60,537 nucleotides of DNA, taken from assembly GCF_003334255.1 (NCBI RefSeq), contig NZ_QOWU01000027.1. One strand, given 5' to 3'. A program made the position numbers and the translations under genes. The notes below the pieces were generated by a model. The model was not told the DNA's origin. It ran no database searches and saw nothing but the letters and a program-made list of their open reading frames with translations. Each line of letters begins with the position of its first letter. Position 1 is the stretch's first letter. Shown one piece after another: positions 2,361 through 45,051 of this stretch. The DNA comes from Escherichia coli. Its GTDB lineage: Bacteria > Pseudomonadota > Gammaproteobacteria > Enterobacterales > Enterobacteriaceae.

Positions 2361-5300
2361 ATGGACAAGGAATTACCGTGGCTGGCGGATAACGCCCAAC
2401 TGGAACTGAAATATAAAAAAGGCAAAACGCCGCTCAGTCATCGTCGCTGGCCGGGCGAACCAGTGTCCGTTATCACTGGAAGTCTCATCCAGACATTGGG
2501 TGATGAATTGCTACAAAAAGCTGAGAAGAAAAAAAACATTGTCTGGCGTTATGAGAATTTTTCACTGGAGTGGCAGTCCGCCATCACGCAGGCCATCAAC
2601 TTGATCGGCGAACACAAACCCTCAATCCCGGCCCGGACAATGGCGGCGCTAGCCTGTATCGCGCAAAATGACAGCCAACAGTTGCTCGACGAAATCGTCC
2701 AACAAGAGGGGCTGGAATATGCGACTGAGGTGGTGATTGCACGCCAGTTTATTGCGCGGTGTTATGAGAGTGATCCTCTGGTAGTGACATTGCAGTATCA
2801 GGACGAGGATTATGGCTATGGTTATCGCTCAGAAACCTATAACGAATTCGATCTCCGACTGCGTAAGCATCTCTCTCTGGCAGAGGAAAGCTGCTGGCAG
2901 CGTTGCGCCGACAAACTCATTGCCGCACTACCAGGAATAACCAAAGTTCGCCGCCCTTTTATTGCGCTGATCCTCCCGGAAAAACCAGAAATAGCCAATG
3001 AGTTGGTAGGCCTTGAATGCCCGCGAACTCATTTTCATTCTAAGGAGTGGTTAAAAGTTGTTGCTAATGACCCCACAGCGGTGAGAAAACTCGAACACTA
3101 CTGGAGCCAGGATATATTTAGCGATCGAGAAGCCAGCTACATGTCGCATGAAAACCACTTCGGCTACGCGGCCTGCGCCGCCCTTTTGCGCGAACAAGGA
3201 CTGGCAGCCATTCCGCGCCTCGCGATGTATGCCCATAAAGAAGATTGCGGCAGTCTGCTGGTACAAATTAACCATCCGCAAGTCATCCGCACCTTGCTAC
3301 TGGTGGCTGATAAAAACAAACCCAGCCTGCAACGTGTGGCTAAATACAGTAAAAACTTCCCCCATGCGACGCTCGCCGCACTGGCAGAACTGCTGGCGTT
3401 AACAGAACCACCAGCCCGCCCTGGTTATCCAATCATCGAAGACAAAAAGCTGCCTGCACAGCAAAAAGCACGCGATGAATACTGGCGTACGCTGTTACAA
3501 ACGCTGATGGCATCGCAGCCACAACTGGCAGCAGAAGTGATGCCGTGGTTAAGTACTCAACCCCAGTCAGTGCTGAAGAGTTATTTATCGGCACCGCCCA
3601 AACCGGTTATTGATGGCACCGATAACAGCAATCTGCCAGAAATCCTCGTTTCACCACCGTGGCGTAGTAAGAAAAAAATGACAGCTCCACGTCTTGATTT
3701 GGCACCGCTCGAATTAACTCCGCAAGTTTACTGGCAACCAGGCGAACAAGAGAGGCTTGCCGCCACTGAGCCTGCCCGTTATTTCAGCACGGAATCTCTT
3801 GCGCAACGCATGGAACAAAAAAGTGGACGAGTTGTATTACAGGAACTGGGTTTTGGGGATGATGTATGGCTGTTTCTGAATTATATACTCCCCGGAAAAC
3901 TGGATGCTGCACGCAATTCACTCATTGTTCAGTGGCATTACTACCAGGGGCGGGTTGAAGAGATCCTGAATGGCTGGAACTCCCCGGAAGCACAATTAGC
4001 AGAACAGGCGCTCCGCAGCGGTCACATAGAAGCGTTAATTAACATATGGGAAAATGACAACTACTCACGTTATCGTCCGGAAAAGAGTGTCTGGAACCTG
4101 TATTTATTGGCACAGTTGCCGCGTGAGATGGCTTTGACCTTCTGGCTGCGTATCAATGAGAAAAAGCATCTGTTCGCGGGTGAGGACTATTTTCTCAGTA
4201 TCCTCGGATTGGATGCGCTACCAGGTCTGCTGTTGGCTTTTTCACATCGTCCAAAAGAAACATTTCCGTTAATTTTAAATTTCGGCGCAACAGAACTGGC
4301 CCTGCCCGTTGCCCGCGTCTGGCACCGTTTTGCGGGCCAGCGTAATCTGGCTCGCCAGTGGATTTTACAATGGCCGGAACATACGGCTACTGCACTTATT
4401 CCACTCGTCTTTGTTAAACCCTGCGACAACAGCGAAGCGGCATTATTTGCCCTTCGTTTACTGTATGAACAAGGACATAGTGAATTACTGCAAACGGTTG
4501 CAAACCGCTGGGATCGCGCTGATATGTGGCCAGCCCTGGAAAAAATACTTACCCAGAACCCGATGGAAATTTACCCGGCACGCATTCCAAAAGCCCCTGA
4601 TTTCTGGCATCCGCAAATGTGGTCCAGGCCGCGCCTTATCACTAATAATCAAACTGTTACCAATGACGCTCTGGAAATTATCGGCGAAATGCTGCGCTTT
4701 ACCCAGGGGGGACGTTTTTATAGCGGGCTGGAACAACTGAAAACGTTCTGCCAGCCACAAACGCTGGCAGCTTTTGCCTGGGATCTCTTCACTGCGTGGC
4801 AACAAGCTGGTGCCCCCGCAAAAGACAACTGGGCATTTCTGGCGTTAAGTCTCTTTGGTGACGAAAGCACGGCACGGGATCTGACGACACAGATCCTCGC
4901 CTGGCCACAAGAAGGCAAATCTGCCCGTGCTGTCAGCGGCCTGAACATCCTTACCCTGATGAATAATGATATGGCGCTGATACAGCTGCATCATATATCG
5001 CAACGGGCTAAATCCCGCCCCTTACGTGATAACGCGGCGGAATTTCTTCAGGTGGTCGCAGAAAATCGCGGGCTAAGCCAGGAAGAGCTAGCGGACAGAT
5101 TAGTCCCAACCCTGGGCCTTGATGATCCGCAGGCGTTGAGTTTTGATTTTGGTCCCCGGCAGTTTACCGTTCGCTTCGATGAAAATCTCAACCCGGTTAT
5201 CTTTGATCAGCAAAACGTTCGCCAGAAAAGCGTTCCCCGTTTGCGCGCCGATGACGATCAACTGAAAGCGCCCGAGGCACTGGCCCGACTAAAAGGGCTA

Positions 5301-35923: not shown

Positions 35924-36116
35924 TATTCCCCTCTCCAGTTAATTATTGAGAATAATTATTACTTCACCTGATAAGCTGCGGATATCACATTCCTAACCGC
36001 AGCTATTTGTGAATCTTTTCACAGTTTAAATTCCCCCGCACGCTTAGCCTTAATATCAGTACATTATTATTTACTAAACGCTCGCCTTAATTACCTATAG
36101 CATTAAGGAAGATCAC

Positions 36117-39852: not shown

Positions 39853-41373
39853 TTAAAGGTGCAAAGACGCAAGACGCAGAATTTCGTTTTGCGTTGTTGT
39901 TTTTGTATCGACAATTCCGGAAACGAGACCATTGCTCATGACCAGAATACGGTCTGTTATCCCTAACAACTCAGGCATTTCAGAGGAGATAATAATAATC
40001 CCCTTGCCTTTCTTCGCCAGTTCGGCAATTAACTGATAAATTTCAAACTTCGCCCCGACATCAATACCGCGCGTCGGTTCATCGAGCATTAATATTTCTG
40101 GTTGCGTTAGTAGCCAGCGACCAATAATCACCTTTTGCTGATTACCACCGGAGAGCGAACCAATTTGCGTCCGATGACCCGGCGTTTTTACCCGCATCGA
40201 ATCAATCACCCACTGGGTATCGCTTTTCATCCGCGAGTTATCCAGTAAACCAACTTTATTTTTGTAGTTGCGAATATTGGAAATTAACGAGTTAAAACCA
40301 ATATCCAGATAGGCATAAATTCCCGTTGAGCGGCGCTCCTCAGTTACCAGTGCAAATCCATGGTTTATGGCTTCGTTGGCATTATGGTTATTGATCTGTT
40401 TGCCGTGCAACGTTATGGTGCCAGCCGATTTCTCGCGAATACCAAATAACGTCTCAACAATATCGGTACGTTTCGCCCCCACCAGACCGGCAATACCGAG
40501 GATCTCCCCTTTATGCAGATCAAACGAGACATCGCGAATCGACGGCTGGCGCAGTGACGTCAGGTTACGTACCTCGAGGATGACTTCGCCCGGTTTGTTT
40601 TCTTTGTCAGGGAAACGCTGGTTAAGAGAACGCCCAACCATCATGGCGATGATCTTGTCCATCGTCAGTCCTGCCAGCGGTTCGGTGGCGATCCACTGAC
40701 CGTCGCGCAATACGGTAACTTCATCACATAACTGGAAGATTTCTTCCATTTTATGCGAGATATAAACAATACCGCAGCCGCGCTCTTTTAATTTACGAAT
40801 AATAGTGAACAGATGATTGACCTCTTTTTCGGTTAACGAAGAAGTCGGTTCATCCATAATCACAATTTTCGCGTTATAGGAAAACGCTTTGGCGATTTCG
40901 ATCATCTGCATTTGCGAAACGGATAATGTGCCGACGCGCGCACGCGGATCGATATCAATATCCAGTTCGTCAAAAATCGCTTTGGTTTCGCGGTACATTT
41001 TGTCCTGATCGACAAACATGCCTTTGGTGGGATATCGCCCCAGCCACATGTTATCCATCACCGAACGTTGTAATACCAGGTTTAACTCCTGGTGTACCAT
41101 CGAAATACCATTTTCCAGGGCTTCTTTTGCAGAATGGAAATCGATCTCTTTACCCTGGAATAAAATGGTGCCGGAGTCTTTTTGATAAATACCAAACAGG
41201 CATTTTAATAATGTCGATTTTCCTGCACCGTTTTCCCCCATTAATGCATGGATAGAATGTGGCCGGACTTTTAAATTAACGTTATCAAGTGCCTTAACAC
41301 CAGGAAAGGACTTGTTGATACCGCTCATTTCCAACAAGTATTCCCCGGAGGACGGAGTCGTTGAGCTGACCAT
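39853..41373 (-). CDS. mglA: MglA, galactose ABC transporter ATP-binding protein with duplicated ABC domains (506 aa)
   Basis: ORF 39853..41373 (-); two Walker A motifs ([18 protein letters not shown]). Confidence 0.93.
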
Positions 41374-41433: not shown

Positions 41434-42432
41434 TTATTTCTTGCTGAATTCAGCCAGGTTGTCTTTATCTACGCCAACATAAGGTACGCGGACCACTTTG
41501 TTGTCGATTTTCCAGTTGGTGCCATCAGCCGCACCTTTACCATCGGCCAGGTTTTTCGCCAGATCAAAGGTCGCTTTCGCCTGGTTGTTAGCATCGTTCA
41601 GTACGGTGCCCGCCAGTGCACCGGATTTCACCAGCGCCAGCGCTTCTGGCAGCGCATCGACGCCAAACACCGGAATGCTGGACTTGTTGTGTGCTTTCAG
41701 CGCTTCAACCGCGCCCATTGCCATCGCATCGTTGTTGGCGATAACCACTTCGATTTTGTTGGCGTTCGGGCCAGACAGCCAGGCGTCCATCTTATCTTTC
41801 GCCTGAGCGGTGTCCCACATTGCGGTATCTAACTGTAACTGTTCAGTTTTGATGCCTTTATCGTTCAATTCTTTAATCACGTAAGTGGTACGTGCTTCTG
41901 CATCCGGATGGCCCGGTTCACCTTTCAGCAGTACGAACTGAATCTGACCGTCTTTGTTCAGATCCCAACCCTGATTCGCCGCCCAGTGTTTAGCAATCAA
42001 ATCGCCTTGAATAATGCCGGACTCTTTGGAGTCAGTGCCAACGTAGTAGGCTTTGTCGTAGCTATCCAGCGCCTTACGAGACGGTTCTTTGTTGAAGAAA
42101 ACCACCGGCACGTTTTGCCCACGCGCTTTCTCAATCACCGTACCCGCAGCTGCCGGGTCAACCAGGTTGATTGCCAGTGCCTTCACCCCTTTCGCCAGCA
42201 ATACGTCGATCTGATCGTTCTGCTTGGACTGGTCATTCTGAGAATCATTCATCAGCAGCTGAACATCTGGCGCGGCTTTCGCATCTTGCTCAATAGCCTT
42301 GCGCACTACAGACATAAAGTTATCGTCGTACTTATAGATTGTTACACCAATGCGAGTATCAGCAGCGTGTGCAGCGGCACCGAATAACATGCTGGCCATC
42401 ACAGCAGACAGGGTTAACACCTTCTTATTCAT
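41434..42432 (-). CDS. mglB: MglB, periplasmic D-galactose/D-glucose-binding protein (332 aa)
   Basis: ORF 41434..42432 (-); signal peptide [23 protein letters not shown]. Confidence 0.93.
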
Positions 42433-42683
42433 GGTATCTCCGGTTTTTCTTATGCAGGGTAGTGCTTGAGATAAATGCTCGGCGGGGCAGTAGAGTTAAT
42501 GAAGTGTTACTGAACGCCGAAGCTCACTTTTTAAAATTCGTTCTTCCATGCCCGGTAACGCTCCAGAAAACGGCTTTAATTGTTGTTATGACGCTGTTAC
42601 CTCGGCAAAAGTGATTATTCACTGTTACATACGGGTTACAACGTTAAAACGGTGCAATCATAGCTATCACATTGTTAAGATAC

Positions 42684-42699
42684 TGTGAAATCACTCACA
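42684..42699 (-). promoter_or_regulatory. Consensus CRP site (TGTGA-N6-TCACA) in the mglB upstream region
   Basis: TGTGAAATCACTCACA is a perfect match to both CRP half-sites. An adjacent TGAAAGCGGTTACA resembles a GalR/GalS operator half-palindrome. Confidence 0.6.
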
Positions 42700-42711
42700 G
42701 ATTGAAAGCGG

Positions 42712-43752
42712 TTACATCGCCTGATTTGTTGAGTTAGTGATCGCCGCCGCATTCTGGCGTGTTGCGACAGAATGGCGACGCACTAACGTCGGCATAAAAC
42801 AGTGGCTGGCACGAGGATCAATATTGCCTGCTGCCCCCTGCAAGGCCAGTTCGGTGGCTAATTTCGCCATTGAAGCAATGGGATAACGCACGGTCGTTAA
42901 TTGCGGGTCGGTGTAACGGGCGATGGGAATATCATCGAAACCGATGATTGAGAGATGTAACGGAATCGCAATGCCATTATCTTTTAATGCTGTCAGTGCG
43001 CCAGCGGCCATATTGTCGTTATAAGCAAATACAGCGGTAAGTTGTAGATTGCGCCCCAGCAGTTCAACCATCGCCGCCTCACCGCCCGGCATGTCCGGCG
43101 TACCAGCGCCAATCCAGCTTTCCGGCGGAATAATATCCTGCTCTTTCAACGCACTCATCCAGCCTGCTTTACGCATGGCGTCATCTTCAATGCCGTGGCT
43201 GGAAGAAAGATAACCAATACGTTGATGACCGTTATTCAGCAACATGCGCGTCGCCATTCGGGCACCGCTGAGATTATCCAGGCAAACGCAACGATGGGCG
43301 TACCCCGGCACAACGCGGTTGATTAACACCATACCGGGAATGTTATCCATAAATTGCGCCAGTTCATCGTCACTCAATGCTTTTGAGTGAACAATCAACG
43401 CATTACAACGCTGGCGAATTAACACCTCAATGGCGTGACGCTCTTTTTCCGCTTCATGATAGCTATTGCCGATTAGCACGTATTTCTGATGCTGCTGAGC
43501 GACCAGATCCACCGCTTTTACCAGCGCGCCGAAAAACGCATCAGAAACGTCCATCACCACCACGCCAATGGTGTCGCTAACCTGAGTTGCCAGCGCCTGG
43601 GCATTGGCGTTTGGCCGATAATCCAGCTCACTCACGGCTTTCATTACTGCTTCACGCGTGTCGGCACTGACCAGCGTGCTGTTATTGAGCACCCGGGAAA
43701 CCGTTGCCACAGAGACGCCAGCCTGACGCGCTACATCACGAATGGTGATCAT
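42712..43752 (-). CDS. galS: GalS, LacI/GalR-family repressor of the mgl/gal regulon (346 aa)
   Basis: ORF track 42712..43758 (-); start trimmed to ATG 43752 ([26 protein letters not shown]). Confidence 0.92.
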
Positions 43753-43832
43753 ATTCACTACCTGTTATGAGATTGCAGTAAATGACTGCTTGCTGGCGGC
43801 TATTTTGTCAGCACTGAATACAGGACTTCGTG

Positions 43833-43864
43833 AATCGAGTCACAGCAATGGAAACGGTTACAGC
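43833..43864 (-). promoter_or_regulatory. galS promoter region: CRP-like site plus GalR/GalS-type operator
   Basis: CGTGAATCGAGTCACA (CRP-like) immediately followed by ATGGAAACGGTTACAG, which matches the TG-AA-CG-TT-CA operator core; ~80-110 bp upstream of the galS ATG. Confidence 0.5.
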
Positions 43865-43893
43865 CGTTTTGTTAACGAATGTGATCCAGATCG

Positions 43894-45051
43894 TTATCTT
43901 GATGTTTTAGATATTGCCGGTCCGGCAGCACGCAAAGTTAACTGACGCCAGAGCCATTCCACCGGCCCCTGGCGGAAGTAACGCAGCCAGATAACAGAGA
44001 AGAGGATATTCGCCAGCCATACCGGAATAACAAACGCCAGCAGCTCCAGGCGGTCAAAATGCATAAACAAACCGAGGTGGTAAAAAAGCGTGGTACAAAT
44101 CAGCGTTTGCAATAGATAGTTGGTCAGCGCCATCCGTCCGACGCAGGCGATCGCAAGCACCAGCTTAAAGCGGCTCAATTGCGGCCAGAAGCCATAAAAC
44201 AGCGACGCATAGCCAATCGCCTGAAACGGCGCACTCAGTTCCCGCGGCATTTGAAGTAAGAAGGCACACCAGCGATACGCCCAGTCCAGCTGCCATTGCA
44301 GGGCGATGGCAGGAAGGTTAATGGTCACCCCAATCGCCACCAGCACAAAACCAGTACGACGATAGTGACGTAAGCTGAACTGCCCTTTCAGCCAGCCGCT
44401 GCGCATCAGCGCCGCACCAATGAGCATCATCCCTGCCAGTTGCCAGCCATACTGTGCGCCCAGTGCCAGTAAACTGTTGCCAACACCATCGGCACGATTA
44501 CTGATCGCTTCAACGCCGCCGTGAAGCTTCCAGTATTTTTCATACAAAATAGCCGATGCATCCGGCGTCCAGGCGCGGCTGGTCTGGCTGTCGGAAATCA
44601 GCCCCAATAACAGCAAAACGCCAAGCCCCACCAGATAAAGCATGACGCCTGTATTAAACAGGCTTTTTACCGATGGCGCATCGCGCACCAGCCGCCAGCA
44701 GATTAAGCCCACCAGCCCGTAAGCCAGCAAAATATCGCCGTCCCAGAACAATAAACCGTGAATAAAGCCCAACAAGACTAACAGCGTTAACCGCGACTGG
44801 ATCCAGCGTCTGCCACGGGGCAGCAACATTTGCAGGCCCGCACCAAACAGTAGCGCAAAAAGCGTGAGGAATTTCACCTGGCCGATGAGATCAAGAAATG
44901 CCCAAGTCCATGCATCCCGCGGCGTAATAGCACCGTACCAGGCGGGATTGAGATAAGCCGCCTTTGGTAGCCCAAAGGCGCTGATGTTTAATAGCAGGAT
45001 CCCCAGAATGGCGACGCCGCGAACAAAATCGAGCGTGACGTTGCGCTCCAT
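43894..45051 (-). CDS. yeiB: YeiB, DUF418-family inner membrane protein (385 aa)
   Basis: ORF 43894..45051 (-); 16 nt downstream of folE, likely co-transcribed. Confidence 0.9.
   Translation of the reverse strand: MERNVTLDFVRGVAILGILLLNISAFGLPKAAYLNPAWYGAITPRDAWTWAFLDLIGQVKFLTLFALLFGAGLQMLLPRGRRWIQSRLTLLVLLGFIHGLLFWDGDILLAYGLVGLICWRLVRDAPSVKSLFNTGVMLYLVGLGVLLLLGLISDSQTSRAWTPDASAILYEKYWKLHGGVEAISNRADGVGNSLLALGAQYGWQLAGMMLIGAALMRSGWLKGQFSLRHYRRTGFVLVAIGVTINLPAIALQWQLDWAYRWCAFLLQMPRELSAPFQAIGYASLFYGFWPQLSRFKLVLAIACVGRMALTNYLLQTLICTTLFYHLGLFMHFDRLELLAFVIPVWLANILFSVIWLRYFRQGPVEWLWRQLTLRAAGPAISKTSR

Follow-up and report, generated by a model that had tools for sequence, protein, structure and literature searches.

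The galS–mglB region and its regulatory sites

The window, by which we mean the whole 60.5 kb stretch of DNA that was analysed, carries mglA, mglB, galS and yeiB on the minus strand (Table 1). The segment from 42300 to 44000 is 100% identical to Escherichia coli K-12 MG1655, and its sequence was found in all 5426 of the 5426 complete E. coli genomes. Window coordinates equal MG1655 NC_000913.3 coordinates minus 2,197,916, and the older MG1655 coordinate system (v2), which is used in part of the literature cited below, is offset from NC_000913.3 by 1,978 bp. The RefSeq annotation of the identical MG1655 sequence bears out the names galS and mglB, which the original prediction had assigned from sequence. 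The galS stop codon is a TAA at 42712-42714; at the other end of the gene, the galS reading frame in the list of open reading frames reaches further upstream, to a GTG at 43758.

Table 1. Genes and regulatory features of the galS–mglB region (window coordinates; positions relative to a transcription start are those of the promoter named).
Feature	Position	Strand	Sequence	Remarks
mglA	39853-41373	minus		RefSeq annotation
mglB	41434-42432	minus		periplasmic galactose/glucose-binding protein; first gene of mglBAC; ATG at 42432; open reading frame list and RefSeq
mglB 5′ untranslated leader	42433-42650	minus		about 218 nt; putative start
Leader block	42453-42463	minus	ACUACCCUGCA	(nearly) invariant across the 34 leaders aligned
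PmglB -10 hexamer	42657-42662	minus	TATGAT	at least 95% conserved across 80 aligned sequences
PmglB CRP core	42684-42699	minus	TGTGAAATCACTCACA	0 mismatches to TGTGA-N6-TCACA; centre 42691.5
mgl operator (GalS/GalR site)	42702-42717	minus	ATGTAACCGCTTTCAA	16-mer; centre 42709.5, about -59.5
galS	42712-43752	minus		LacI-family galactose isorepressor; RefSeq
Internal galS operator OI	43695-43710	minus	GTGGCAACGGTTTCCC (sense strand)	listed in PMC5110547; mapped by coordinate offset
PgalS start	43794	minus	A	42 nt before galS ATG
PgalS -10 hexamer	43802-43807	minus	CAAAAT	conserved as CAnAAT (CAAAAT/CAGAAT)
PgalS CRP core	43829-43844	minus	CGTGAATCGAGTCACA (TGTGACTCGATTCACG)	one mismatch to core; centre 43836.5, about -42.5
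galS external operator OE	43848-43863	minus	CTGTAACCGTTTCCAT	centre 43855.5, about -61.5
Second, weaker CRP-like site	43880-43895	minus	AACGATCTGGATCACA	centre 43887.5, about -93.5 from galS start
yeiB	43894-45051	minus		RefSeq annotation

On the mglB side of galS, a perfect CRP consensus with an adjacent operator had been predicted about 250 bp upstream of mglB, and both sites are present. The CRP core lies within a 22-mer spanning 42681-42702, and the core of the operator (TGAAAGCGGTTACA, 42703-42716) has no mismatch to the 14-bp gal operator core TGNAANCGNTTNCA. The distance also agrees with the one predicted, as 259.5 bp separate the CRP centre from the mglB ATG downstream. Operator and CRP site are spaced 18 bp centre to centre, and the 16-bp operator overlaps the galS stop codon. 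The -10 hexamer is centred 32 bp from the CRP centre, a geometry that is the same as that of PgalS.

On the other side of the gene, a CRP-like site plus operator had been placed at 43833-43864. Both sites are real, although this range starts four bases into the CRP-like site. The core of the external operator OE (TGGAAACGGTTACA, 43849-43862) is a perfect 14-bp operator core, and the centres of the PgalS -10 hexamer and CRP site are 32 bp apart. The CRP centre lies 84.5 bp from the galS ATG; with the galS (mglD) mRNA start quoted as -42 (PMC2763269, Table 3), this puts the CRP centre at -42.5, not -41.5, and the operator at -61.5. A further operator, OI, sits within the stretch of galS that encodes the helix-turn-helix (VATVSR) and is separated from OE by 153 bp. 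It had been overlooked in the original prediction, which was right about the two flanking ones.

Occupancy at both promoters, the evidence to which the original prediction had pointed, is provided by published GalR ChIP-chip and CRP genomic SELEX data. Sites inferred from GalR ChIP-chip at 2240625 (mglB, TTGAAAGCGGTTACA), 2241771 (galS, ATGGAAACGGTTACA) and 2241619 (GTGGCAACGGTTTCC, listed as OI(galS)) correspond to window positions 42702-42716, 43848-43862 and 43696-43710, respectively (PMC5110547). Genomic SELEX recovered galS and mglB, both known targets of CRP (PMC3105977), and the PgalS CRP site is visible in Reg-Seq footprints (Reg-Seq preprint). At mglB, the repressor and activator sites have been described as partly overlapping (PMC2516365). 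The GalR ChIP-chip paper also names an “O (mglB)”, GTGCACCGGATTTCAC, inside mglB at 41616-41631; it appears in the 3C and in-silico tables and is absent from the ChIP-chip inferred sites (PMC5110547), and its status as an operator looks weak.

Published genetic data also cover the mglB-side pair. Two recurrent chemostat alleles, given in older coordinates as 2,238,647 (GalS site) and 2,238,630 (CRP site) (PMC7863352), convert to window position 42709, which is the central CG of the mgl operator, and to 42692 in the spacer of the PmglB CRP site. Recurrent operator mutations, placed 3 bp from the end of mglD/galS, derepress mglBAC (PMC2763269; PMC7863352). Under glucose limitation, adaptive mutation falls mainly on the mgl operator.

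Significance and conservation of the paired sites

Across the window, the operator core occurs 3 times without mismatch, and the CRP core 5 times with no more than one. Singly, each motif was only weakly enriched over shuffled sequences (5 matches vs. 1.6 expected for CRP, and 5 vs. 2.7 for the operator), as might be expected if the motif pairs were chance matches to short degenerate consensus patterns. We also scored composites, defined as a perfect operator core and a CRP core with at most one mismatch whose centres are 15-25 bp apart. Two composites were observed in the window, whereas none of 2000 first-order Markov random sequences contained even one.

Conservation was measured in 80 species-level loci that a scan with MglB had retrieved; they represent about 30 genera within the Enterobacteriaceae. 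Both composites were present in 80/80 loci, where the operator cores are perfect and the spacing is always 18 bp in the mgl composite and 19 bp in the galS one. Both half-sites of the PmglB CRP site were perfect in all 80 species, and the PgalS CRP core kept the form TGTGA-N6-TCACG in 79 of them. In both composites the operator lies upstream of the CRP site on the sense strand. Compared with the 16-bp hyphenated dyad GTGNAANCGNTTNCAC, O-mgl and galS OE deviate only at the outermost positions, 1 and 16. The absence of composites from random sequences and the invariance of positions and spacings across 80 species rule out a chance match for practical purposes, and the published occupancy and mutation data, which cover the sites of both composites, leave this reading with almost no credit.

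Two further perfect motif matches in the window stand alone. A perfect CRP core (TGTGAATCTTTTCACA, 36008-36023) lies between yeiS and preT, about 100 bp upstream of the preT (yeiT) ATG, and yeiT is one of the known targets of CRP that genomic SELEX picked up (PMC3105977). A perfect gal operator core (TGCAAACGGTTGCA, 4489-4502) lies within the yehI coding sequence and is probably due to chance, with about 0.12 such matches expected per window.

The mglB transcription start and leader

From the position of the CRP centre (42691.5 minus 41.5) and a -10 hexamer 7 nt upstream, we infer that mglB transcription starts at 42650 ± 2. The CRP position of -41.5 and the leader of 218 nt would follow from this promoter geometry and from secondary statements in the literature. 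In the Reg-Seq data, a mutation at about +30 of mglB creates a consensus -10 and is needed for a new start. This site fits AATAAT at 42614-42619, together with a native start near 42648-42650; if the mutation falls exactly on A42619, transcription would begin at 42648, with the CRP site centred at -43.5.

The distal position of the mglB-side sites had been taken to imply either a long leader or DNA looping. The first alternative is supported by the conserved -10 hexamer and by a 5′ UTR reported as “about 250 bp” for mglBAC in E. coli and Yersinia pestis (PMC3119520), and looping is not needed: the module would lie far from the ATG simply because transcription starts about 218 nt upstream of it. 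Alternatively, the module at 42684-42717 could be an upstream class I or remote element that serves a promoter near the ATG, in which case the leader would be short. A consensus scan did return one promoter-like match downstream, TTGTAA-16-AATAAT at 42641-42614. However, most genera have CTGAAA and TTAATC in its place, the mutation seen by Reg-Seq was required before a new start arose there, and no conserved -10/-35 pair occurs near the mglB ATG. A short leader is also at odds with the reported UTR length of about 250 bp (PMC3119520), and with the description of an Hfq peak and a Spot 42 site as within the 5′ UTR (PMC5207318). Such a leader is thus very improbable, and we rejected 42641-42614 as the native mglB promoter because it is not conserved and fires only after mutation.

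A long leader is consistent with the spacing in other species, as the distance from CRP core to ATG was 237-268 nt in 79/80 and 461 nt in the remaining one. In the exception, Citrobacter amalonaticus S646, the mglB leader is interrupted by 194 bp of inserted sequence (locus positions 2775-2968), which looks ERIC-like. The block complementary to Spot 42, described below, is intact in this strain despite the insertion.

Several segments of the leader are conserved. These blocks include UAUGUAAC near +21, CUGGAGCGUUACC, CACGGAAGA and CAGUAAC, and several of them hold GGA motifs. A literature search on CsrA control of mglB gave nothing specific. Near +30, the sequence of a small hairpin (GUGAAUAAUCAC) varies while its self-complementarity is kept in several genera, and the pairing CUUCGGCG...CGCCGAG shows weak covariation. 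A scan of 42300-44000 against Rfam at an E-value threshold produced no match, RNAalifold found no consensus structure in the UTR with 34 mglB leaders, and the E. coli leader folded no better than shuffles (z = -1.05). Given the lack of a consensus structure and this z score, we claim no structured riboregulator. When helices were specified by hand, 76% of cells were paired and double changes occurred in 8 pairs vs. 5.7 in shuffles, which offers modest covariation backing for one long-range leader hairpin.

The most conserved leader block beyond the Shine-Dalgarno region in the 34-leader alignment was ACUACCCUGCA. Within it, UACCCUGC (42454-42461) is complementary to nt 1-8 of Spot 42 (MG1655 spf). 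The predicted duplex with MG1655 Spot 42 had an energy of -15.0 kcal/mol for nt 1-15 and -24.8 kcal/mol for nt 1-30; over the whole leader, the value of -37.0 kcal/mol was indistinguishable from that of shuffled leaders (-32.9 ± 3.6). In Salmonella, Holmqvist et al. found that Spot 42/Hfq represses mglB via a conserved site in the 5′ UTR, and the pairing was confirmed by compensatory mutations (PMC5207318). We assign the block to Spot 42 because a seed-complementary sequence is conserved and because of these published experiments, not because of duplex energy. The E. coli mglB leader thus carries a putative Spot 42/Hfq target that matches the site validated in Salmonella, with block complementarity and conservation in 33 other aligned species sequences as the evidence on the E. 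coli side.

In these respects mglB resembles the Spot 42 targets in multi-output feed-forward control, such as galK, srlA and fucI, which are CRP-activated genes whose mRNAs are repressed via the Spot 42 5′ seed. The putative pairing block of mglB is likewise found immediately upstream of its Shine-Dalgarno sequence. Spot 42 is itself repressed by CRP.

Two CRP-dependent promoters of the gal regulon

Taken together, these data make it very probable that PgalS and PmglB are two independent sigma-70 promoters arranged in tandem on the minus strand, both following the standard plan of the gal regulon. Our own analysis provides the sites with their significance, their geometry in 80 species and the module shared with galE and galP; for occupancy, for the dependence on CRP and GalS, for operator mutations and for Spot 42 regulation we rely on the literature. 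At each promoter, cAMP-CRP centred about 41.5-42.5 bp upstream of the start would activate RNA polymerase directly, in the class II manner, and the 16-bp GalS/GalR operator, 18-19 bp beyond the CRP site at about -60, would abut it. Without galactose, repressor bound at the operator would be expected to block CRP-dependent initiation, and galactose would release it. GalS is expected to be the main repressor for mgl, and GalR may bind the same operator. As CRP would also drive galS, which would be autoregulated, CRP, GalS and mglBAC would form an incoherent feed-forward loop, to which pairing of Spot 42 and Hfq just upstream of the ribosome-binding site would add a post-transcriptional arm acting on the mglB leader. 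The circuit of CRP, GalS and its targets has been described as an incoherent feed-forward loop with cAMP-dependent input functions (PMC2516365). With two promoters in tandem, the bracketing of galS by both pairs of sites follows as a matter of course.

We considered whether the bracketing might itself be functional, with the operators flanking galS cooperating through a repressor DNA loop and the distal site acting by looping. Candidate loops would join O-mgl (42709.5) to OE (43855.5), 1146 bp away, or the galS OE to OI, 153 bp away. GalR does loop OE and OI at galE. An OE/OI pair is listed for galS as well, and 3C contacts (“mega-loops”) have been found between operators of the gal regulon, with those of galS and mglB among them (PMC5110547). 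However, at both promoters the CRP site stands in standard class II geometry to a conserved -10, which requires no loop, and the mglB input function is monotonic, unlike those of the looped galE and galP (PMC2516365). In addition, single point mutations in the sole mgl operator derepress mglBAC and sweep chemostats (PMC2763269, PMC7863352), and so strong an effect argues against looping as the main mechanism. We consider both the cooperative bracketing and the particular loops named above unlikely. Looping is possible at most as an extra layer over the two independent promoters, not as an alternative to them.

The second, weaker CRP-like site may add detail to PgalS. It overlaps the yeiB stop codon, and in 81/81 sequences its centre is exactly 51 bp upstream of that of the main galS CRP site, with GA-N6-TCACA invariant and the spacer variable; 15 of its 22 positions match the CRP consensus. 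For stationary phase, acetate and galactose, Reg-Seq reports that an activator, left unidentified there, has a site near -95 of galSp (Reg-Seq preprint); the signal belongs to high-cAMP conditions. The CRP-like site at 43880-43895 may be this “-95” site, CRP being a candidate for its activator on the strength of the motif.

From galS to the mglB ATG, the minus strand showed no terminator-like site, and galS transcripts must consequently enter the mgl operator, CRP site, promoter and leader. The position of the galS stop relative to the operator varies among genera. Only in Escherichia (5/81 sequences) does it fall within the mgl operator; in most other genera it begins 13-16 bp, and ends 10-13 bp, upstream of the 14-bp operator core; an embedded stop was accordingly rejected as a general rule. 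Tentatively, and with more doubt than confidence, we propose both that PgalS is a tandem-CRP promoter, with sites about five helical turns apart and the operator between them, and that galS, having no terminator of its own, couples the two promoters. If true, PgalS and PmglB would be coupled by read-through or interference. In the mglB leader, galS transcripts might then be terminated or processed at a C-rich tract and the partly conserved CUUCGGCG...CGCCGAG hairpin. If confirmed, the second CRP-like site, the absence of a galS terminator and the leader blocks would add modest detail to the circuit.

The arrangement as a whole is already known: it is that of the E. coli galS and mglBAC promoters, PgalS and PmglB. 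These promoters of the galactose regulon are said to have been described by Weickert and Adhya in 1993 and by Hogg et al. in 1991. The circuit is among the best-studied in E. coli, and it was re-derived correctly from sequence alone, which makes it useful as a positive control for such a scan. PmglB and PgalS as given in PMC5110547 and PMC3119520 are the same locus with the same sequences, and we found no difference; the CRP dependence, GalS autoregulation and GalS repression of mgl described for them agree with the locus analysed here.

The layout is shared beyond this locus. The MG1655 control regions of galE P1 and galP also carry the module, with operator and CRP site 19 bp apart, and their CRP centres lie 67.5 bp (galE) and 71.5 bp (galP) from the ATG. 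As at PmglB and PgalS, the operator is upstream of the CRP site; CRP is in the class II position relative to the promoter, a position that it would also hold at PmglB and PgalS. The matched architecture bracketing galS was therefore read correctly in the original prediction, but it reflects a general plan of CRP-dependent gal-regulon promoters and is not a peculiarity of galS. Within this plan, galE and galP differ from mglB in having a second operator for GalR/HU looping and short leaders, whereas mglB has one promoter-proximal operator, a spacing of 18 bp and a leader put at 218 nt.
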